Of a stretch of DNA of 64,000 nucleotides, positions 17,548-40,131 are shown in pieces. The DNA comes from an uncultured Bacteroidota bacterium (GTDB lineage: Bacteria; Bacteroidota; Ignavibacteria; Ignavibacteriales; Ignavibacteriaceae). The notes below the pieces were generated by a model. The model searched no databases. It was not told the origin of the DNA and saw only the letters and a program-made list of their open reading frames with translations. The DNA is taken from the NCBI GenBank assembly GCA_963787005.1, contig CAWBBX010000101.1, forward strand, positions 12,835 through 76,834. The letters are read 5' to 3'. How positions within the stretch are numbered: the stretch's first letter is position 1; each line of letters begins with the position of its first letter. The translations under genes were made by a program, and so were the position numbers.

Positions 17548-17838
17548 AATTATCCCCCATCAAAATCGGATTAATTTAATATAATAGATTTTAAGTTGGC
17601 ACCTATTTCCTGCCGGCATGCGCAATTCTTTTCAGGCACGTTAACATTTTTTTTCAGGCCGGACAGATAAATATATGACTGATCTTTTCTGCTGTTTTAA
17701 GAGAAGTAATTTATTATATTTGGCCATTAAAATAATTTAACTTTCACCATTTATAATCATTTTGTTAAATTTAAGAAGTAATTGTATTAAGCCGTATAAC
17801 GTTCATCGTCCCTCGGCTTAAAAAGGAATAAAAGAACG

Positions 17839-18309
17839 GTTCAGGTCGGGCAATTGCTCTTCGCCTTGCGCGGGGGGAGGAAAGTCCGAACTTCACAGAA
17901 CAGGGTGCCGGGTAACACCCGGGGTCCCGGGATGCAGGCCTCAAAGCTTGCGGAACCGGGATACGGAAAGTGCCGCAGAAAATATACCGCCCCGATATTA
18001 TCGGGGTAAGGGTGAAATGGCGAGGTAAGAGCTCACCGCGGGAATGGTAACATTTCCGGTGCCGTAAGGCATCCCGACTACCTGCCGGTAGCAGGTTTTA
18101 TCGGGACAAGGTAAACCCCACCCGAAGCAAGGTTAAATAGGGAAGTTTTTCCCGGCTCGACCGGGAGCAGGGTTGTTCGCTCTGTTTGTCTATTAAAAGG
18201 CAGGAACTTCCGGGTAAACCGCTCGAGCCCGGCAGTAATGACGGGCCTAGACAAATAATTGCCGTCCCGGTTTTAATCGGGATTACAAAATTCGGCTTAC
18301 AGACCTGAA
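17839..18309 (+). ncRNA. rnpB: RNase P RNA, bacterial type A
   Basis: P1 pairing TTCAGGTC/GACCTGAA. Conserved blocks GAGGAAAGTCCG, CAGGGTGCCGGGTAAC, GTAAGGGTGAAA, GGTAAGAGCTCACC, GGTAAACCCCACCCGAAGCAAG, CTAGACAAATAATTGCC and ACAAAATTCGGCTTA. Confidence 0.92.
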
Positions 18310-18352
18310 TCTATTTCTTTGTTCTTTTAATTATCTTCTATGGATAATTAAT

Positions 18353-31960: not shown

Positions 31961-33379
31961 ATGAAAAAAACAAATTACTTTATATCTTTTTTAAGTATGA
32001 TCTGCTTTTTGTTAATACAAAATTACGGTTTTGCCCAGACTTGTAAATCATGCCACACGGCCGAAGCTAATTTATGGGCAAACAGCAAGCATGCGGACAC
32101 TCAAGCCGATGTCGCATCGGAGCTCTCCGAAAACTGGATTGGCCAAACGCCGGATTCGGTTATTAACGGCTCCCAGGCGGAAGACTGCGTTTCCTGTCAT
32201 TCGCCGAGAGCAATTACCGCCAACAGCGGTATGACCGAAACTCAAGCCATGGGCTATTTCTATTCAACAACAGCCGGACAATATACCGATTCTACAAAAG
32301 CGATCAACACTTCCGACTGGCCCAATGTTACATGTAAAACCTGCCACGAAAGTGATATGACAACTTTCGGCGCTTTCAATTCTAAAACAGGAACTTATGA
32401 TTCAGTTAAGACTGCTAATGATTTATGCGGAAACTGCCACGGAACCGTCCGTCATCCCGATACCGATCACCGTGTTTATGATGCATGGCTGTCGAGTAAA
32501 CACGGGCACAAAGGTCAATCCGATGTTGCCGGCGAACTGGCTGATAGTCATAACGGCGAAACACCCGACCAGGTAATTGCCGGCGAAGATTGTATAGCGT
32601 GCCACGCCCCGACTTCGGTTACCCTCAAAGGCGGAATAACAGAAGCTCAGGCTTTGGGAACTTTTTTCACGACTTCAAACGGGACTTTTACCTCGTCTAC
32701 TTCACCGGCCGATACCGTCGATTATCCGAACGTAAGCTGTATTACTTGCCATAATCCGCACGATCCGGATACGCTTTCATTCTTCAATTCATCCACAAAA
32801 TCCTACGAGGTGATGAGTTCTTCGGATTCATTATGCGGCCAGTGCCACGGCAATTTACGCTTCCCCGATACCGATCACTTAAGCTATAATATTAATTCAG
32901 GTACCGGCGGGGAGAATGTTTCAAATATAACTTCGATGAGCGGCGTTAAATGCATAGACTGTCACATGTACAACACGGGTATTGACGGCTCGAATTCTGC
33001 GATGTACAAGGGGCACACCTGGTCGGTGTTCGTTAAAGAGCCCGACGGCAGCACCGACGCATCTTGTACTAATTGCCATGCGTCAATGTCTGCCGACTCT
33101 TCGATGGCCTGCGTAGCAAAATGGCAAAGTGATTTTCAATCACTAGATTCGGTTGCCGAAGCCGCGGTAACGGCTGCAGCTAGTCATCTAAAGAACAGCA
33201 GCGATTCAAGCAACTTTGAAGAGGCTCAATTTAATATGACCTACGCGGAATCGGATGAAAGCGGCGGTGTTCATAATCATCTTTACAGCACCGCTTTGCT
33301 TAATGACGCAATTAATAAAGCAACATTCGATAGTTACGGGAATTGCTTCCGATCATTTCAACAAACCTTTAAGTTTTAA
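31961..33379 (+). CDS. secreted nine-haem c-type cytochrome (frame ends prematurely)
   Basis: Signal peptide and nine CXXCH motifs: CKSCH, CVSCH, CKTCH, CGNCH, CIACH, CITCH, CGQCH, CIDCH, CTNCH. A three-haem module is internally duplicated. Confidence 0.85.
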   Translation: MKKTNYFISFLSMICFLLIQNYGFAQTCKSCHTAEANLWANSKHADTQADVASELSENWIGQTPDSVINGSQAEDCVSCHSPRAITANSGMTETQAMGYFYSTTAGQYTDSTKAINTSDWPNVTCKTCHESDMTTFGAFNSKTGTYDSVKTANDLCGNCHGTVRHPDTDHRVYDAWLSSKHGHKGQSDVAGELADSHNGETPDQVIAGEDCIACHAPTSVTLKGGITEAQALGTFFTTSNGTFTSSTSPADTVDYPNVSCITCHNPHDPDTLSFFNSSTKSYEVMSSSDSLCGQCHGNLRFPDTDHLSYNINSGTGGENVSNITSMSGVKCIDCHMYNTGIDGSNSAMYKGHTWSVFVKEPDGSTDASCTNCHASMSADSSMACVAKWQSDFQSLDSVAEAAVTAAASHLKNSSDSSNFEEAQFNMTYAESDESGGVHNHLYSTALLNDAINKATFDSYGNCFRSFQQTFKF

Positions 33380-33644
33380 TTTATCTCAAAATTATCCCAA
33401 TCCTTTTAATCCAAGTACAAAAATAAATTTCACAATTCCGCACAGCGGTTACGTAACCTTAAAAGTATACGACATGCTGGGGAAAGAAGTGGCTGTTCTG
33501 GTAAACGGATATAAAAACGAAGGTAATTTTTCGGCGGCTTTTAACGAGAACACTACATCGAAAAGCCTGTCAAGCGGGATATACATTTACCAGTTAAAGG
33601 AAGATAACTTTATTCAGACTAGAAAGATGGTGCTGCTTAAATAA
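33330..33644 (+). other. T9SS type-A C-terminal sorting domain coding segment, out of frame with the cytochrome
   Basis: A different frame reads ...FNLSQNYPNPFNPSTKINFTIPHSGYVTLKVYDMLGKEVAVLVNG...SSGIYIYQLKEDNFIQTRKMVLLK*. This is the classic Por/T9SS tail. It has no credible start of its own. Confidence 0.75.
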
Positions 33645-33704: not shown

Positions 33705-34405
33705 TTATTGTAGCCTGAATATTATCGGTATAGAAACCTGCGTCTTTACTGCTTTACCACGCTGTCTGCCGGGTGTAAAAACCGTTTCTTCAACCGCTTT
33801 CATCGCAGCTTGATCGCATCCGCCGCCAATACCTTTTAAAACTCTAGCCTTTACAACCTTCCCTTCTTCATTAATAAAAGCAAGGACATATACTTTTCCT
33901 TCTATTCCGGCCCTTTTCGCAATTTCAGGATAAACAACTTTATCCTGTATAGCTTTAATACCGCCTATCGGCTCGGGCATATCCTCTACGGCGACAAAAT
34001 AAGTTGATTGCGGAATGTTGCTCGGCTAGAGAGCTGTCTGGTCCAAGGATCATATTGGATGACTCACCTTTGCTTTTAAACGAATAGCGGGCCTTAAATT
34101 TAACCGGCTTTCCGTTTTTCATGGCGGGCTTAATTTTCCACTTCTCCAGCATATTCTACAATATCGTTATCTGTTGAATCGTTAACGGAATTGATAATTA
34201 TTATTTTATCGATTTTGCCTTCTTTATTTATTAAGAGCCTGGAATCGAATTCCGGAGAAAAATTTTGGGGACTGTAGGCTTTTGATATTATCCTTCCAAT
34301 ATCTTTCACCCACGTAGAATCGAAGAGCATTCGCTCTACGAAACCAATAGGCGGATTATCTACTTCTCCGAGAGTTAAATAACTCGTCGTCGGAAATTTT
34401 TTCAA
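33705..34405 (-). pseudogene. protein with two TonB C-terminal-like domains, split over three frames
   Basis: Three ORFs (34130-34405, 33955-34152, 33705-33980) read through as one protein. Junction 1 is ...DNDIVEY / (N)MLEKWKIKPAMKNGKPVKF. The last domain's frame is open upstream of its Met (PSNIPQSTYFVAVEDMPEPIGGIKAIQ...). Confidence 0.55.
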
Positions 34406-34485: not shown

Positions 34486-34944
34486 TCACATTTTTGCTTT
34501 TATAATTACTGCATTTTTTATTTTTGCGTCCACCTGCGCGGCGGGCAGACTGTTGAACAGCAGCTCGATTGTCTGGTTCTGCGCCTGAACCTGCCTTGTA
34601 ACAGAATCTATCTGGTATTTATAATCGGTAATTCTATTGAAGAGAATTACGCTTAGAATTATTAATAGAATTGTAACTGCATACGAGACAGGGACAAAAA
34701 ATCTCTTAAACAATTTTGTTCTTGTTCCGCTTTCCTTTCTATTTATCGCGCCGAAGATACGCTCTTCCAGATCAGCAGGGAATTCTTCTTTCTGAATGGC
34801 GGAAGTAATTAACGATAAAGATTTAAAATACTCCCTGCACTCGGCGCATTCTGCGAGATGCGTGAATACATATGCCTCGCTTCCCTTCTCGAGCTCGCCG
34901 TCGTAATACTCCCCTATCATCTCTTTATTTTTATCGCAGCTCAT
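34486..34944 (-). CDS. anti-sigma factor (zf-HC2 type, single TM)
   Basis: HLAECAECREYF zinc-finger motif and one TM segment. It lies directly downstream of the ECF sigma gene. Confidence 0.75.
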   Translation of the reverse strand: MSCDKNKEMIGEYYDGELEKGSEAYVFTHLAECAECREYFKSLSLITSAIQKEEFPADLEERIFGAINRKESGTRTKLFKRFFVPVSYAVTILLIILSVILFNRITDYKYQIDSVTRQVQAQNQTIELLFNSLPAAQVDAKIKNAVIIKAKM

Positions 34945-34949
34945 TTTAT

Positions 34950-35465
34950 TTACCTCACAAGTTTTGATATCTTTTCCGTCAGCGCCTGCCTGGCCCTGAA
35001 CAGTCTGCCTTTAACCTGACTTTCCTCAATGTTCAATATGTTCGCAATCTCTTTGTAGCTGAGTTCCGAATACTGCCTGAGAATAAAAGCTTCCTTTAGA
35101 TCCTCTCTCAACTCCGCTATGCCGTTTTGTATAAGCTCCTTTATTTCGGCGCCTTCAATCTCGCCGGCAAGATCTTCGCCCGACCTATATTCCGCATCTT
35201 CCTTTATCCCGTCTTCTTTCCTTACCCTTTTCTTGCGAAGGTGCATATAAACTTCGTTCCTCGCCGTTGTATAAAGCCAGGGTATTACGCTCTGCGACTG
35301 CCGGATGTTCCCGAGATTTTCGTACAGCTTTAAGAACACGTTCTGTGTTATATCTTCCGCAATAAACTTTTCGCTCAGCATTTTATATACATAGTTATAA
35401 AGCTGGGTTTTGCTCCGGTTATATACCAGCGTAAAGTCTATTATATTTGAAAAGCTTTCGGCCAA
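34950..35465 (-). CDS. ECF-type RNA polymerase sigma factor
   Basis: Region 2 (DITQNVFLKLY...WLYTTARN) and region 4 (LSYKEIANILNIEESQVKGRLFRARQAL). Confidence 0.88.
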   Translation of the reverse strand: MAESFSNIIDFTLVYNRSKTQLYNYVYKMLSEKFIAEDITQNVFLKLYENLGNIRQSQSVIPWLYTTARNEVYMHLRKKRVRKEDGIKEDAEYRSGEDLAGEIEGAEIKELIQNGIAELREDLKEAFILRQYSELSYKEIANILNIEESQVKGRLFRARQALTEKISKLVR

Positions 35466-35474
35466 AGGCTTTCC

Positions 35475-36170
35475 TTAATTGGATTTTGCAGCTTTTTGAA
35501 AATGATTCTTCTCCACTAGCGCATTAATCCTGTCCATAGCATAGCTGACCAGTTTCTTATCCTTATCTTTTCCGAGAGTTAAATATTTCTGATAATATTT
35601 TATAGCGATAGTTTTATCCTTGTAATAATGATCGTATACCGCGGCAATGTAGAAGATCAGTTTTTTATTATCGGGATTTTCCCTGAACGCGTCCTGGTAA
35701 TATTTAAGAGCTTCGGAATAATTTTTCTGCGCATAATACGAAGCCGCTATCTGTGTACGCACCTCCGCAAGAAAATCGTTCTGCTGAAGCTTTGCCGATA
35801 TCGAAAGCTCTTTGATCGCATCGTCGTACCGCTTGAGCTCTTTATAGCACATTCCCAGATAATAATACGCCGCCGGATCGCTATCCATTAATTTGATAGC
35901 ATGCTTTAAATAAAAAACCGCGGTATCGTATTCAGTAAGCCAGAAATGCGATACACCCATATTCCTGAAATTCACTTCGGTCGAGTCCCCGTAATCTATG
36001 GAATTCTGAAAAGCCGTTACAGCGCCTTCATAATCCTTCAGCTTAAAGTTTATATTGCCTTTCAATGTCCACATTGAAGATGAACTCGGATAATACTTAA
36101 GTCCGTCGTTTATAATTCTGGTTGCGGAAATATATTGTTCTTTCGACATATAAAGTCTGCTCAGTTCCAT
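35475..36170 (-). CDS. TPR-repeat protein
   Basis: 231 aa of TPR repeats with no signal peptide. Its frame stays open upstream of the Met into the end of the preceding ORF. Confidence 0.65.
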   Translation of the reverse strand: MELSRLYMSKEQYISATRIINDGLKYYPSSSSMWTLKGNINFKLKDYEGAVTAFQNSIDYGDSTEVNFRNMGVSHFWLTEYDTAVFYLKHAIKLMDSDPAAYYYLGMCYKELKRYDDAIKELSISAKLQQNDFLAEVRTQIAASYYAQKNYSEALKYYQDAFRENPDNKKLIFYIAAVYDHYYKDKTIAIKYYQKYLTLGKDKDKKLVSYAMDRINALVEKNHFQKAAKSN

Positions 36171-36184
36171 TACCGTACTTTCAT

Positions 36185-36772
36185 TTAAGAGGATTGAGCT
36201 CTGTGTGCTATTTGAAAATCAATAATCGCGTCGTCGATGTCCTTCAAAATAAATTCGCAGTGCGCCTGCTGCTCGTAATAAAAGCTATTCGTAGAATCCT
36301 GCTCCGCAAGAGTTCTGTAAGTATCATCGGCGTCTATCCACTTATGCTCGCGCATATAGACTTCGCCGAGAGACCGGAGCAGCAGTGTATTTGTAGAATC
36401 GATTACATATGCGTATCTAAGGACAGAATCGGCGTCACTGAGCCTCCCCGAGGATAAAAAGCTTCGGCCGAGAAGAATTTGTAATTTCAGCTTCCCCGGT
36501 TTTAATTTTACGGCTTTTTCAAAAAAGTCGGAAGCCTTTGTAAAATTTGAAAGGGATTGATAATTCAGGCCGAGATTGTATATAACCTCGTAATTATCCG
36601 GATCATCCGCCAACAATTTTTGAAGGATAGAAATTGATTGATGGTAATTCCCTTCCATCATCAGCATTCTGACTTTATTCAGCTCATCCTCCTTGCCGCT
36701 CTGTGCCGCGGTAAATGCAGGAATAATGATGAACAGAATAAGCAGAAAATAAATTCGTTTTGTTTTATGCAT
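36185..36772 (-). CDS. secreted TPR-repeat protein
   Basis: Signal peptide MHKTKRIYFLLILFIIIPAFTAAQS, then TPR repeats. It ends 14 nt before the next TPR ORF. Confidence 0.65.
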   Translation of the reverse strand: MHKTKRIYFLLILFIIIPAFTAAQSGKEDELNKVRMLMMEGNYHQSISILQKLLADDPDNYEVIYNLGLNYQSLSNFTKASDFFEKAVKLKPGKLKLQILLGRSFLSSGRLSDADSVLRYAYVIDSTNTLLLRSLGEVYMREHKWIDADDTYRTLAEQDSTNSFYYEQQAHCEFILKDIDDAIIDFQIAHRAQSS

Positions 36773-37503
36773 TATATTACCCGGTTTTCCCCGAAAAATG
36801 GGCTTCTATATGTAAAGATGATCGAACGGCGGAAAAGTTTGGGTGGAATGATATTTTTTTTGTGGAGACGCGCCATGGCGCGTCTCTACTACATAATTGC
36901 CGGAAGCATAAAATGTAGGGCGAAGCTCATCGCATCGCCCTACAAAACAAAAACCTTCGGGGTTACTTATAAATCCCGATGGTTGCATAAAAATCGTAGG
37001 GACAACTCATGAGTTGTCCCTACATCGTATTAATATTACCTGAGTAACCTTGAAGGTCTTGAAAAGCGACCTTCAAGGTTTAAATCTATTTTAATATTAG
37101 AAATGAAACTGCACCAGGAACATTTCGTTTTTAACCGAAGAAGAGAAAAGTTTGAAAGAAATGATATTTTTTTGTAGAGACGACCCGGAAAAATGAGACA
37201 CCCCACCGGGGCGTCTCTACGAAAATTTGTTGGTATCATTTAAAGATAAACCATCGGGGTTACCTTCAAAACCCCGATGGTTGCATAAAAATCGTAGGGA
37301 CAACTCATGAGTTGTCCCTACATCGTATTAATAATTATACTCGAGAAACCTTGAAGGTCTTAAAAAGCGACCTTCAAGGTTGAAATAATTTTAATAATAG
37401 AAATGAAACTGCAAGAGGAACATTTTCGTTTTGAACCGAAGAAGATTTTATTCTCAGCTTATTAAACAAATTTCGCTTGCTTTTTGTTTGTAACTGAGGG
37501 ATA

Positions 37504-37626
37504 TCAGTGATTAAGAGACGTATTTAGAATATTTTCCTTATAATTACTCGAAGAGACTATATCCTTACTGCAACCATTTAAAAATATTAAATATATGATT
37601 ATTGTATATAGATATGTTTTTTTCAT
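37504..37626 (-). CDS. possible 40-aa lipoprotein-like small ORF in the unique insert of the array
   Basis: MKKTYLYTIIIYLIFLNGCSKDIVSSSNYKENILNTSLNH*. It has a lipobox-like LNGC, and GGGGGAATAATT precedes the ATG. It is short and could be an N-terminal gene remnant. Confidence 0.25.
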   Translation of the reverse strand: MKKTYLYTIIIYLIFLNGCSKDIVSSSNYKENILNTSLNH

Positions 37627-38138
37627 AATTATTCCCCCATATTTAATATTAATCATCTATGTGATTAATCATTGTTAATATCTTTTATTAACTAAGCAAG
37701 ACTATATAATTAAAGATGTTTTTGACTTAGAAAAGTTTGAGAGGAATGATATTTTTTGTAGAGACGGGGCAACATGTCCCAATGCTTCGGGATGCCCGTT
37801 TCTGCATCGAAATGCTATGAAAAATGAGACACCCCACCGGGGCGTCTCTACGAAAATTTGTTGGTATCATTTAAAGATAAACCATCGGGGGTTACCTTCA
37901 AAACCCCGATGGTTGCATAAAAATCGTAGGGACAACTCATGAGTTGTCCCTACATCGTATTAATATTACTCGAGTAACCTTGAAGGTCTTAAAAAGCGAC
38001 CTTCAAGGTTGAAATAATTTTAATAATAGAAATGAAACTGCAAGAGGAACTTTTCGTTTTGAACCGAAGAAGAGAAAAGTTTGAGAGGAAGAAGATTTTT
38101 TGTAGAGACGACCCGGCGGGTCGTCTAAATGCACATAC

Positions 38139-38173
38139 AAAAAAAATGAGACGCCTCACCGAGGCGTCTCTAC
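38139..38173 (-). terminator. Rho-independent terminator-like module inside array unit 4
   Basis: On the minus strand: GAGACGCC-loop-GGCGTCTC followed by ATTTTTTTT. Weaker equivalents (shorter T runs) occur in units 2 and 3. Confidence 0.5.
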
Positions 38174-38676
38174 GAAGACTCTTTGCATTAAGAAACCTTC
38201 GGGGTTACTTTCAAAACCCCGATGGTTGCATAAAAATTGTAGGGACAACTCATGAGTTGTCCATACATCGTATTAATATAACTGAGTAATCTTGAAGGTC
38301 TTAAAAAGCGACCTTCAAGGTTAAATAATTGTAATATTAGAAATGAAACTGCACGAGGAACTTTTCGTTTTTAACCGAAGAAGAGAAAAGTTTGAAAGAA
38401 ATGATATTTTTTTGTAGAGACGACCCGGCGGGTCGGCTCTACTAAAAATATTATTGATTACATAATTGCGGGGCGAAGCTGTGCTTCACCCTACAAAACA
38501 AAAACCTTCGGGGTTACCTTCAAAACCCCGATGGTTGCATAAAAATCGTAGGGACAACTCATGAGTTGTCCCTACATCGTATTAATAATTACCTGATTGA
38601 GCAACCTTGAAGGCTTGCCTGCCGGTAGGCAGGGCAGGCAAGTCTTAAAAAGTGACCTTCAAAGTTTAAATCTATT

Positions 38677-39801
38677 TTAATAATAGAAATGAAATTGCAC
38701 TAGGAACACGTCGTTCTTTACAGAGGGCGATTCGAACTGGAACCTGTACTGCGGCCGGACTTCAACAAAGCTGTACGGGAAGAACTCGGCGCCGACAATA
38801 AATCTCGATACTTCGTCTCCGCTAACACTCGTGTTGGGATCAAATTTATCGTAGCGTAATATTCCTTCCAAGCCTTTTACTATTCTGTATGAACCTTTAA
38901 GCATAAGAGCAGATGAGTTAGCGCCCACCGATTCGTAATCGCTCGCCATATCGTATTCACCCATCAGCGTAAAATTACCTACTCCGAATCCCGCGTAACC
39001 TCCGTACATATTAATTTTATGCTCTGTAGGTAGCGGCGTGTAAATAAGAGGACCGCGGAAATTTGTATACGACGCTCCGAGCAGAACCGCTACCTTGCTC
39101 GCTATTACCGGATTAACCTGTATGCTCGCAGTGTATGTGGGATCGCTGTTGAAGTTTAAATTAACGGGACTCCCGACGCTGGCCGTTATCAGCCCGACAT
39201 CACCTATATTATAGCCGAGCTCAACGCCTGTAACGCTGTACCTGGGATCGAATATTAAACCTCTCCTTTGATTTGTGGTAAACAAGTAGCCGAGGTCTCC
39301 GCCTCGCGTGTACGCCGTATGATCATCTATGCGCAGACCGAAATCAGGATAAAAAGTACCGGCTTTAACGTAGCTTTCGTTGGGAAGAATATGCGCTACC
39401 GCGAACGCCTCCCACGTCTGGTTTACAAAATCATATTGTGCGTAAGCGTTGATTTCATCGCTCAGATCAACGTTTGTATACATAGTACCTTCCATCTTCT
39501 GGAATGCGGTCTTGCCGAACTGCTGGGAGTAAACGTATTGAGTTCTATAATCCAATCCGACTTCAATATTATCGGCGATGTGATTATCCATCTTAAAAGA
39601 TTTATCTCTCGGCGAGACTAGCGGAAGAACTTTCCAGCCGAAATGCCAGCCGCCTTTGTTCCTCATTCCTCCGCCGGTAGGATCGATGTGGCAGTCGATG
39701 CAGCGGGCCCCCATTCTGAGCGCGAACCTGGGAAGAGCGTAGCTGCTGCCGATCCCCATAAAAATAAAAGCGGCAATCATAAAATACTTGGTATACTTCA
39801 T
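38677..39801 (-). CDS. fused monohaem cytochrome c / outer-membrane beta-barrel protein (Cyc2-like architecture)
   Basis: Start set at MKYTKYFMIAAFIFMGIGSSYA (signal peptide). A single CIDCH follows ~11 residues after the predicted cleavage site. About 340 aa of beta-strand-like alternating sequence then end in ...VFLVQFHFYY*. Confidence 0.55.
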   Translation of the reverse strand: MKYTKYFMIAAFIFMGIGSSYALPRFALRMGARCIDCHIDPTGGGMRNKGGWHFGWKVLPLVSPRDKSFKMDNHIADNIEVGLDYRTQYVYSQQFGKTAFQKMEGTMYTNVDLSDEINAYAQYDFVNQTWEAFAVAHILPNESYVKAGTFYPDFGLRIDDHTAYTRGGDLGYLFTTNQRRGLIFDPRYSVTGVELGYNIGDVGLITASVGSPVNLNFNSDPTYTASIQVNPVIASKVAVLLGASYTNFRGPLIYTPLPTEHKINMYGGYAGFGVGNFTLMGEYDMASDYESVGANSSALMLKGSYRIVKGLEGILRYDKFDPNTSVSGDEVSRFIVGAEFFPYSFVEVRPQYRFQFESPSVKNDVFLVQFHFYY

Positions 39802-40131
39802 GCGTTTATTCCTTTTATTTAAGTGTAATATAAACTCTATGCTTAATCGGAAGAGAGGGCAATTTAACATTTACAATGTCCAAATTCTTACGGAATTGTG
39901 TCTTACGGCAAATCTCATAATCATTAGTGAGGTAAACGGCATAAAAGTACCAAATCTTTTGCCGTAGATATTTACACCAGAGAATTTTACTGTACAATTT
40001 TGACATAAATTGAATGTTTCATATTTAACCGAATCAAATCGACAGCGCTAATGCCCGACCTTCGTCGTCTAATTTTACATTGATTAAGAATGCTCACTTA
40101 GTTACTTTTAGTTTTATATAAATTTGCGACT

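Follow-up and report, generated by a model that had tools for sequence, protein, structure and literature searches.

The question raised by this locus is whether a protein that has the architecture of Cyc2 is itself a Cyc2. The window analysed here is a stretch of 64,000 nucleotides from an uncultured bacterium of the Ignavibacteriaceae (GenBank assembly GCA_963787005.1, contig CAWBBX010000101.1, positions 12,835 to 76,834), and the gene in question, called the haem-porin gene below, was originally predicted from its sequence to encode a Cyc2-like fusion of a cytochrome and a porin. Among genetic markers for microbial Fe(II) oxidation Cyc2 is the one in widest use, and it is acknowledged that the role of its divergent homologues still has to be settled. 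Our answer is that the protein very probably joins a monohaem c-type cytochrome to a 16-strand porin of the outer membrane and belongs to the Cyc2 superfamily and, within it, to a distinct and unnamed sister clade. We hold this structural and evolutionary identification with confidence; the overall explanation, including the mechanism proposed below, we consider moderately probable, and a function in iron redox chemistry, argued by analogy with Cyc2, is put forward more tentatively.

The open reading frame (ORF) occupies positions 38677 to 39801, as originally reported, and lies on the minus strand, which the original prediction had left unstated. Its translation of 374 amino acids, MKYTKYFMIAAFIFMGIGSSYA followed by LPRFALRMGARCIDCHIDP and closing with FLVQFHFYY before the stop codon, agrees with the sequence quoted earlier, down to the aromatic C terminus. 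An in-frame start upstream, at 39870, would give a longer ORF; the homologues all begin at the MK... position instead, and their alignment supports this start. The N terminus is built like a Sec signal peptide, with a lysine-rich n-region, a hydrophobic core and then SYA followed by LP, and the predicted cleavage position is the equivalent of the canonical Cyc2 site between A and [IL]P, just before [AIL]-P-x-F-A. The only cysteines in the protein are C34 and C37, which together with H38 make up its one CXXCH motif. All three residues are invariant in 40 close homologues (48-74% identity) and in 139 of 139 full-length family members, very remote ones included, and a chance occurrence of the motif can therefore be dismissed. 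The signal peptide and the single c-haem motif of the original prediction thus both hold, and the motif is conserved in the orthologues, a check that the prediction had itself proposed.

The remainder of the protein is predicted to be a porin. An AlphaFold2 model, built without haem on the 40-sequence alignment, has a predicted template-modelling (TM) score of 0.70 and a predicted local distance difference test (pLDDT) score of about 80 in the strands, and it contains exactly 16 beta-strands between residues 79 and 373, in agreement with the barrel of about 16 strands that had been suggested from the sequence and with the strand count that had been called for. The successive connections between strands measure 4, 4, 4, 3, 39, 3, 9, 7, 8, 2, 7, 2, 7, 2 and 7 residues, so that in the model the pattern is that of a classical porin, with short periplasmic turns and a 39-residue loop at the position of L3. 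When the model was compared with the PDB by Foldseek, the 16-strand porin OprP ranked first (2O4V, E 8.5e-12, TM 0.60), OprO (4RJW) reached TM 0.59, and the other leading matches were also porins such as OmpT/U and OmpF/C; overall the porin matches ranged from E 1e-11 to 1e-10 and from TM 0.5 to 0.6. OprP and OprO are also the structural templates reported for Cyc2 (PMC8406198). The window protein thus shares with the 16-strand porins at large (OprP/OprO, OmpF/OmpC, OmpU/OmpT, Porin_4) the strand number, the short turns, the L3 loop and the aromatic beta-signal. What they share is the fold only; these porins have no sequence-level relation to the family and lack a haem segment.

Evidence that the resemblance to Cyc2 extends beyond architecture comes from profile comparisons. 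Canonical comparators were collected by scanning a genome collection with the back-translated pattern P-x-F-A-R-[QK]-[TY]-x3-C-x-x-C-H, which gave 120 loci and 85 complete proteins, among them those of Acidithiobacillus (locus L025), of Mariprofundus and other Zetaproteobacteria (L003, L028, L053), of Sideroxydans/Gallionellaceae (L087, L096), of Nitrospira defluvii (L011), of Ignavibacterium album (L094) and of Melioribacteraceae (L032, L038). A hidden Markov model (HMM) of the family scored up to 65 bits against canonical Cyc2 proteins, and the canonical HMM up to 53 bits against family members and 18.2 bits against the window protein, in two stretches that cover the N terminus and the barrel; reversed-sequence controls reached at most 8.4 bits. 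Alignment of the family profile to that of the 85 canonical proteins by hhalign gave a probability of 98.7% (E 2.4e-16) over 300 collinear columns, and the barrel by itself, with the haem block deleted, still gave 96.4% (E 1e-9). Reversed alignments gave 0.1-0.5% (0.1% for the barrel alone), and the unrelated Porin_10 barrel family encoded at the same loci gave 0.6%, none of these being significant. The nearest canonical subgroup is the one with FARKY in its haem block (99.4%, E 2e-21); as a yardstick, the FARQT-type and FARKY-type subgroups of canonical Cyc2 align to each other at 99.7% (E 4e-26).

The family profile matched no ordinary PDB porin at E <= 10, and a PDB sequence search found no solved fused cytochrome-porin, its sole match being an insignificant one (E 0.29) between the N terminus and the c-type cytochrome 8E5F. 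Pfam and NCBIfam scans of the window protein returned nothing usable (Porin_4 at 14.6 bits against a cut-off of 27, E 0.028), a result that carries no information because the authentic Cyc2 proteins of Acidithiobacillus, Sideroxydans and I. album give no match either. The HMM, hhalign and barrel-only results, with their clean controls and the lack of any match to PDB porins, support a homology of the family to Cyc2 that spans the whole length and is remote but genuine, as judged from sequence comparison. In the haem block the register P(-10) F(-8) A(-7) G(-3) S(-1) CxxCH is common to both, corresponding to P-x-F-A-x-x-x-G-x-S-C-x-x-C-H. Among the fused cytochrome-porins of Clusters 1-3, the family resembles the Cyc2 of Acidithiobacillus ferrooxidans, Cyc2 PV-1 of Mariprofundus ferrooxydans and Cyt572 of Leptospirillum in its signal peptide, its N-terminal CXXCH within a haem segment of about 30 residues, and a 16-strand barrel matched best by OprP/OprO.

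The family nevertheless departs from canonical Cyc2 in its signature. Keffer et al. (2021) characterized Cyc2 by a signal peptide, one CXXCH, a length of at least 365 amino acids and a 16-strand barrel, and described AxPxFAR[Q/K][T/Y] upstream of the CXXCH as unique to Cyc2, using it as a filter for inclusion, with PxL downstream (PMC8406198). The window protein has a signal peptide as read from its sequence, a single CXXCH, 374 residues, a predicted OprO/OprP-like barrel of 16 strands, and homology to Cyc2. Its upstream motif, however, reads ALPRFALRM, in which A, P, F and A are in register and the R, [QK] and [TY] positions are mismatched. In the family as a whole PxFAR[QK][TY] occurs in 0 of 139 members, compared with 85 of 85 canonical proteins (which have it by construction), and PxL at +3/+4 downstream of the CXXCH in 0 of 139 compared with 72 of 85. 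The family has signatures of its own instead. After the haem motif the window protein reads CH-ID-PTG, and CXXCHxxP[TSAN]G is found in 124 of the 139 members and in none of the 85 canonical proteins; the L3 motif D[DNE]H[TS] is found in 94 of 139 and 1 of 85, respectively. In consensus terms, FA(L/A)R stands in place of the FAR[QK][TY] of Cyc2 and CH(V/I)NPTGGG(M/L)RN in place of CH...PxL..FG, the L3 sequence DDHTAYTRGGD does not occur in canonical Cyc2, and the median length is 376 rather than 447 amino acids.

The phylogenetic separation was assessed with neighbour-joining distance trees of the 139 family and 85 canonical-signature sequences, with 50 bootstraps, and with the haem block either kept or removed. 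In both cases family and canonical sequences formed an exclusive split in 46-50 of the 50 bootstraps, although these are crude trees, made at about 17% identity from distances that approach saturation, and intermediates may exist because family and canonical sequences were gathered in different ways. Mean p-distances were 0.67 within the family, 0.74 within the canonical set and 0.83 between them, and the canonical sequence nearest to the family came from a Bacteroidetes metagenome-assembled genome (MAG; L117). The published classification places each Cyc2 in Cluster 1, 2 or 3, whereas this family splits off from all the canonical-signature Cyc2 sampled. The call of the original prediction, that the protein is Cyc2-like, is thus upheld as to architecture and, through HMM comparisons of the kind that it had called for (hhalign and the 18.2-bit match), as to remote homology. 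It does not carry over to canonical Cyc2, from which the protein is set apart both by its lack of PxFAR[QK][TY] and PxL and by the phylogeny that the prediction had named as a check.

The family is large. A word-indexed search recovered at least 424 homologues that match the protein in length; the best 120 of these are all about 375 amino acids long and without a Pfam domain, and the few among them with a named source are annotated as hypothetical proteins of Ignavibacteria or Bacteroidetes MAGs, consistent with the origin in the FCB group suggested at the outset. When the profile was searched exhaustively, 1,520 representatives of 50%-identity clusters matched at E <= 1e-3 (658 at E <= 1e-10). 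Nearly all full-length representatives have one N-terminal CXXCH, a few having two, and the consensus of their haem block is [AS][LIV]P[RK][FY][AS]x[RQK]xGxxCxxCH[VI]NP[TS]GGG[ML]R. Named distant members belong to Candidatus Marinimicrobia, Candidatus Eisenbacteria, a marine Nitrospiraceae MAG and Ignavibacteriales, a taxonomic range that is a lower bound, as organism names are available for a minority of distant members. Unusual N termini were seen in some distant relatives (P0171, P0188, P0206, P0216, P0220, P0224 and P0266; P0183 and P0184); some have two CXXCH motifs, the first in a block that resembles the canonical Cyc2 type, and others have a histidine-rich N-terminal extension, for example DGGDHHHHDGGG, ahead of the haem block. 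In another relative, P0221 (583 amino acids), the family match is confined to the C-terminal part. At the other extreme, three proteins of 55 amino acids from other contigs share the cluster of the window protein at 90% identity; they may represent the same gene, called in truncated or frameshifted form in other assemblies.

How might such a protein work? After export through Sec, haem would be attached in the periplasm to C34 and C37, with H38 as proximal ligand, and the barrel would insert in the outer membrane with both termini on the periplasmic side. The mature N-terminal segment is too short for a cytochrome fold, so it must be the barrel that holds the haem, and the haem segment of about 30 residues would pack into the periplasmic mouth, as in the plug model proposed for Cyc2 (PMC8406198). 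The sixth haem ligand would come from a conserved barrel residue, the candidates being H371 (three residues from the C terminus), M103 and H161. The alternation of the C-terminal beta-signal, with F370, F372 and Y374 outward, suggests that H371 faces the lumen. Over the 139 sequences, C34, C37, H38, G43, G82 and G155 are conserved in 100%, R47 in 99%, H371 in 96%, R166 in 95%, H161 and M103 in 93% and D160 in 91%, with R86, E194 and E282 also among the conserved residues. A small solute would enter from outside through the L3 constriction and exchange one electron with the haem; because L3 carries an almost invariant Asp-Asp-His, a site for a cation or metal on this path is suggested. The electron path would be completed by a soluble, diffusible periplasmic carrier encoded elsewhere. 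In Cyc2 itself the haem has been shown spectroscopically, and Fe(II) oxidation has been shown biochemically for Cyc2 PV-1 (PMC8406198). By analogy, the family may have an electron-transfer role, possibly with Fe(II), and dissolved Fe(II) would be the likeliest substrate. The direction could be oxidation or reduction, and the purpose energy, detoxification, or the reduction of a shuttle or of humic substances.

The positions of these elements, and of the neighbouring features considered next, are collected in Table 1.

Table 1. Features of the haem-porin locus, in positions of the 64,000-nucleotide window
Feature	Position	Strand	Basis
Haem-porin gene, 374 amino acids, stop codon included	38677..39801	-	ORF and translation
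Signal peptide, residues 1-22, MKYTKYFMIAAFIFMGIGSSYA	39736..39801	-	sequence reading; equivalent of canonical Cyc2 cleavage
Conserved haem block, residues 23-51, LPRFALRMGARCIDCHIDPTGGGMRNKGG	39649..39735	-	conservation, Cyc2 register
CXXCH (CIDCH), residues 34-38	39688-39702	-	invariant among homologues
Predicted 16-strand beta-barrel, residues 79-374, ending QFHFYY	38680..39567	-	AlphaFold2 model, Foldseek
Met103, candidate second haem ligand	39493..39495	-	93% conserved over 139; proposed role
Long loop at L3 position, strands 5-6, residues 151-189, with DDHTAYTRGGD	39235..39351	-	AlphaFold2 loop lengths
D159-D160-H161 in L3 loop	39319-39327	-	conserved motif
His371, last strand, candidate second haem ligand, periplasmic rim	38689..38691	-	96% conserved over 139
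Five units of about 300 nucleotides directly downstream of the gene	36830..38676	-	repeat and hairpin analysis
TPR protein, downstream	36185-36772	-	Pfam
TPR protein, downstream	35475-36170	-	Pfam
Extracytoplasmic function (ECF) sigma factor, downstream	34950-35465	-	Pfam
zf-HC2 anti-sigma factor, downstream	34486-34944	-	Pfam
TonB_C protein, downstream, in three overlapping ORFs in different frames	33705-34405	-	Pfam
9-haem c-type cytochrome ORF	31961-33379	+	Pfam Cytochrom_C552, c554, c7-like
Bacterial RNase P RNA class A	17838-18315	+	Rfam RF00010, 264.6 bits

The genomic setting of the gene also differs from that of canonical cyc2. Comparison was made with two syntenic relatives, L121 and L124, whose proteins are 71% and 51% identical to the window protein, and with 80 further metagenomic loci. 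In L121, L124 and the window the gene occupies the same slot, divergent from dxr-rseP-LytS/LytTR-Porin_10-HU and followed by a TPR protein and ClpX, and among the 80 further loci a divergent dxr lies within 800 nucleotides in 21 of the 54 that are informative. The gene appears to be vertically inherited at a housekeeping locus, outside any respiratory cytochrome operon. In rus-type and neutrophile loci of cyc2 a periplasmic c-type cytochrome such as Cyc1 is a frequent neighbour, though it is no formal criterion of Cyc2. ORFs with at least two CXXCH motifs lie within 4 kb in 46 of 94 (49%) canonical cyc2 loci, usually abutting cyc2, as with the dihaem gene beside Acidithiobacillus cyc2, and in 0 of 49 loci of the variant family. 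Five canonical FARKY-type cyc2 genes (L012, L032, L058, L081, L085) have on the same strand, 12-95 nucleotides away, a four-CXXCH cytochrome of about 440-465 amino acids, and a sixth (L038) has a neighbour of 314 amino acids with two CXXCH; in these Ignavibacteria-, Melioribacteraceae- and Kapabacteria-like genomes cyc2 and the cytochrome look like a conserved two-gene unit. The FARKY-type Cyc2 proteins (I. album L094, L032, L038, L058, L012) come from the same host lineage as the window protein and share its architecture, at 390-400 amino acids, but they combine the full Cyc2 signature with an abutting same-strand tetrahaem cytochrome of about 450 amino acids, and the window gene has neither. 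It represents a lineage that is paralogous, not orthologous, to them.

The window does contain a multihaem cytochrome, which the original prediction had described as lying next to the haem-porin and had taken to point to extracellular electron exchange. Its 9-haem ORF is in fact 5.3 kb away on the opposite strand, with at least six ORFs and the 1.9-kb repeat array in between, and no ORF with at least three CXXCH motifs was found within 6 kb of the gene in any of 45 related loci. It falls, moreover, in a block of about 9 kb (29.7-38.7 kb) that is extra in the window relative to L121 and L124; this block separates the haem-porin gene from a 615-residue TPR gene and holds a two-component system, the 9-haem cytochrome, the TonB_C, anti-sigma and ECF sigma genes, two small TPR genes and the repeat array. 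Apart from it, the window order resumes as in L124 (615-residue TPR protein, ClpX, ..., YebC, RecJ). The 9-haem cytochrome was accordingly rejected as a functional partner, being non-adjacent, on the opposite strand, within a variable insert and without a multihaem counterpart at related loci. The neighbour argument for extracellular electron exchange fails with it, given 0 of 49 variant loci against 46 of 94 canonical ones. Membership in another class of haem-and-barrel systems was also ruled out. MtrAB, MtoAB/PioAB and Geobacter OmbB-OmaB-OmcB likewise combine an outer-membrane barrel with c-type haem for electron transfer across the outer membrane, but these porin-cytochrome complexes are encoded by separate genes, in them a larger barrel (26 strands in MtrB) surrounds a multihaem (e.g. 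decahaem) cytochrome, and they are able to reach solids (PMC8406198), whereas the window protein unites a single haem and a 16-strand barrel in one chain, and related loci have no multihaem gene beside it.

Several points weigh against the explanation we favour, that of a Cyc2-superfamily cytochrome-porin exchanging electrons with a dissolved substrate. To the absence of the two Cyc2 motifs and the crudeness of the trees, given above, is added the modelling of the haem segment, which in the haem-free prediction is poor (pLDDT 32-38 for residues 31-70), so that the plug position and the sixth ligand are guesses. The frequency of multi-CXXCH neighbours at canonical but not at variant loci tells in the same direction, since with no abutting periplasmic cytochrome in 49 loci a dedicated electron-transfer chain is not evident. 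The function proposed for the clade is a putative one, drawn from comparison with Cyc2, and even the authors of the Cyc2 study see uncertainty in what the divergent homologues of Cluster 3 do (PMC8406198). Finally, the cultured hosts of the lineage are organoheterotrophs and not iron oxidizers (PMC8478452).

The most direct alternative is that the protein is simply an orthologue of Cyc2, a respiratory outer-membrane Fe(II) oxidase that feeds a terminal oxidase, and that its host is a cryptic iron oxidizer. The homology and the identical architecture would fit this, as would FeGenie-based surveys that assign iron-oxidation genes to Ignavibacteriales (PMC8478452) and a report of Cyc2 homologues in Ignavibacteriaceae MAGs (PMC6344600). 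These lineages already hold a canonical Cyc2, however, as in I. album (L094), and the literature reports may mean that gene; with the failed PxFAR[QK][TY] and PxL motifs, the separate clade, the housekeeping slot and the lack of a partner cytochrome within 4 kb in all 49 loci, where canonical cyc2 of the same lineage abuts a 4-haem one, orthology seems quite unlikely. At the opposite pole, the CXXCH might bind no haem at all but form a metal site or a disulfide in an ordinary porin. The haem assignment does come from the sequence, and the haem segment is modelled at low confidence. Against this, C-x-x-C-H is fully conserved over 139 very divergent sequences in which its two cysteines are usually the only ones, the block is in register with the haem block of Cyc2, and the protein has the signal peptide for export that haem attachment requires, so we regard this alternative as extremely unlikely.

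Between these extremes, the protein could be mainly a diffusion porin, whose haem senses redox state, O2 or NO and gates the pore, or detoxifies small oxidants such as peroxide, without metal-redox conduction. Its core-genome location and vertical inheritance beside dxr-rseP in many genomes, the lack of a cytochrome partner, the classical general-porin topology with an L3 constriction loop and the very wide spread in heterotrophic FCB-group lineages would all suit such a role. The sole characterized relatives are nevertheless Fe(II) oxidases, the protein has no sensor output domain, its Porin_4 match is weak and below threshold, and we know of no precedent for a haem-gated porin; on balance this is unlikely. 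A link to the genes downstream on the same strand in the window has also to be considered, in which the haem-porin would belong to an iron- or envelope-signalling and uptake module with the ECF sigma, zf-HC2 anti-sigma and TonB_C genes, for example reducing an Fe(III) chelate at the pore for import of Fe(II) under sigma/anti-sigma control. Of 48 related loci, 10 have the zf-HC2 anti-sigma and TonB_C genes at most 6 kb from the haem-porin gene, always on its strand and in no fewer than four arrangements, which is suggestive of a functional link (loci with the ECF sigma/zf-HC2/TonB_C module are L127, L131, L132, L149, L151, L156, L159, L161, L181 and L194, often with TPR genes too). This is only about a fifth of loci, however, and L121 and L124 lack the module despite their otherwise common synteny; the pattern may be a gene order kept in one sub-lineage, the barrel lacks both a TonB box and a plug domain, these genomes have many ECF sigma factors, and the stacked terminators described below argue against read-through in the window. 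Such a module is therefore very unlikely to explain the protein, and a Cyc2-superfamily cytochrome-porin with an electron-transfer role remains the reading that we prefer.

The terminators belong to an unusual array directly downstream of the gene. Each of its five units begins with a decayed copy, 76-84% identical, of the last 45 nucleotides of the gene, and these copies decode as V-K/Q-N-E-x-F-L-x-Q-F-H-F followed by a premature stop or by YY and a stop. The rest of each unit is a chain of hairpins that includes the 28-nucleotide palindrome GTAGGGACAACTCATGAGTTGTCCCTAC; four of its copies are perfect, and the remaining one carries a single mismatch. One repeat unit folds with z = -8.7 relative to shuffled sequences, and the region contains 14 terminator-like sites where 3.6 +/- 2.1 are expected, 12 of them on the strand of the gene and 10 of these in the array. 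The array has no match in Rfam, and copies of the repeat were found in none of 71 related loci, where the median downstream gap is 150 nucleotides, nor in the rest of the window. A conserved regulatory function for the family was rejected on this ground, and the array resembles the outcome of a local, tandem amplification that took in the end of the gene and the terminator region. Its third unit is broken at 37440-37720 by an AT-rich stretch of about 300 nucleotides that has no similarity to the other units.

Some further observations concern the surrounding genes. A Por_Secre_tail domain, the C-terminal sorting domain of the type IX secretion system (T9SS), is encoded from about 33393 on the plus strand, in a different frame from the 9-haem cytochrome ORF, and 31961-33644 probably encodes a single multihaem cytochrome, secreted by the T9SS, whose gene is interrupted by a frameshift that is either genuine or an assembly error. 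The rseP of L124 is likewise in three pieces, as is the TonB_C gene of the window, which suggests indel errors from long reads, or pseudogenes. No tRNA gene was found in the whole 64-kb window.

A Cyc2-type homologue in this lineage is not new in itself. Canonical Cyc2 occurs in I. album and Melioribacteraceae, Cyc2 homologues were reported from Ignavibacteriaceae MAGs in 2019 (PMC6344600), and FeGenie matches in Ignavibacteriales have been published (PMC8478452). The variant clade, by comparison, was not found described in the published Cyc2 and iron-oxidation literature that we searched. The motif screen of the reference Cyc2 phylogeny (PMC8406198) would exclude it, whereas the post-filters of FeGenie (haem motif, length of at least 365 amino acids) would not exclude the variant protein. 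It is possible, though we think it doubtful, that fused cytochrome-porins have in this clade a fourth major one, which equals the known Cyc2 family in size and belongs, by vertical inheritance, to the core outer-membrane proteins of Ignavibacteria, Marinimicrobia, Eisenbacteria and their relatives.

What the locus offers is a large sister clade of Cyc2, of about 1,500 clusters at 50% identity, defined by explicit signatures and controls, whose members all carry the annotation "hypothetical". It has the architecture and ancestry of Cyc2, yet its haem environment differs, its pore loop is distinctive and it lacks a partner cytochrome, and it resides in the core genome of common non-lithotrophic lineages. 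The protein is experimentally tractable, being small and single-haem with relatives that include culturable hosts, and if the mechanism proposed here is correct, the Asp-Asp-His of L3 and the histidine or methionine of the barrel would provide the first concrete model, open to mutation, of the way in which a porin holds and feeds a haem. Should the clade not oxidize Fe(II), fused cytochrome-porins would do more than iron oxidation, and metagenomic calls of Cyc2 by architecture would be unsafe. Should it do so, iron-cycling potential is under-counted at present. If the clade is redox-active with dissolved iron or organic shuttles, then electron exchange through a single haem in the outer membrane would be routine in the "heterotrophic" bacteria of the FCB group that abound in sediments, aquifers and the ocean, and surveys of iron cycling by marker genes would systematically count too little of it.

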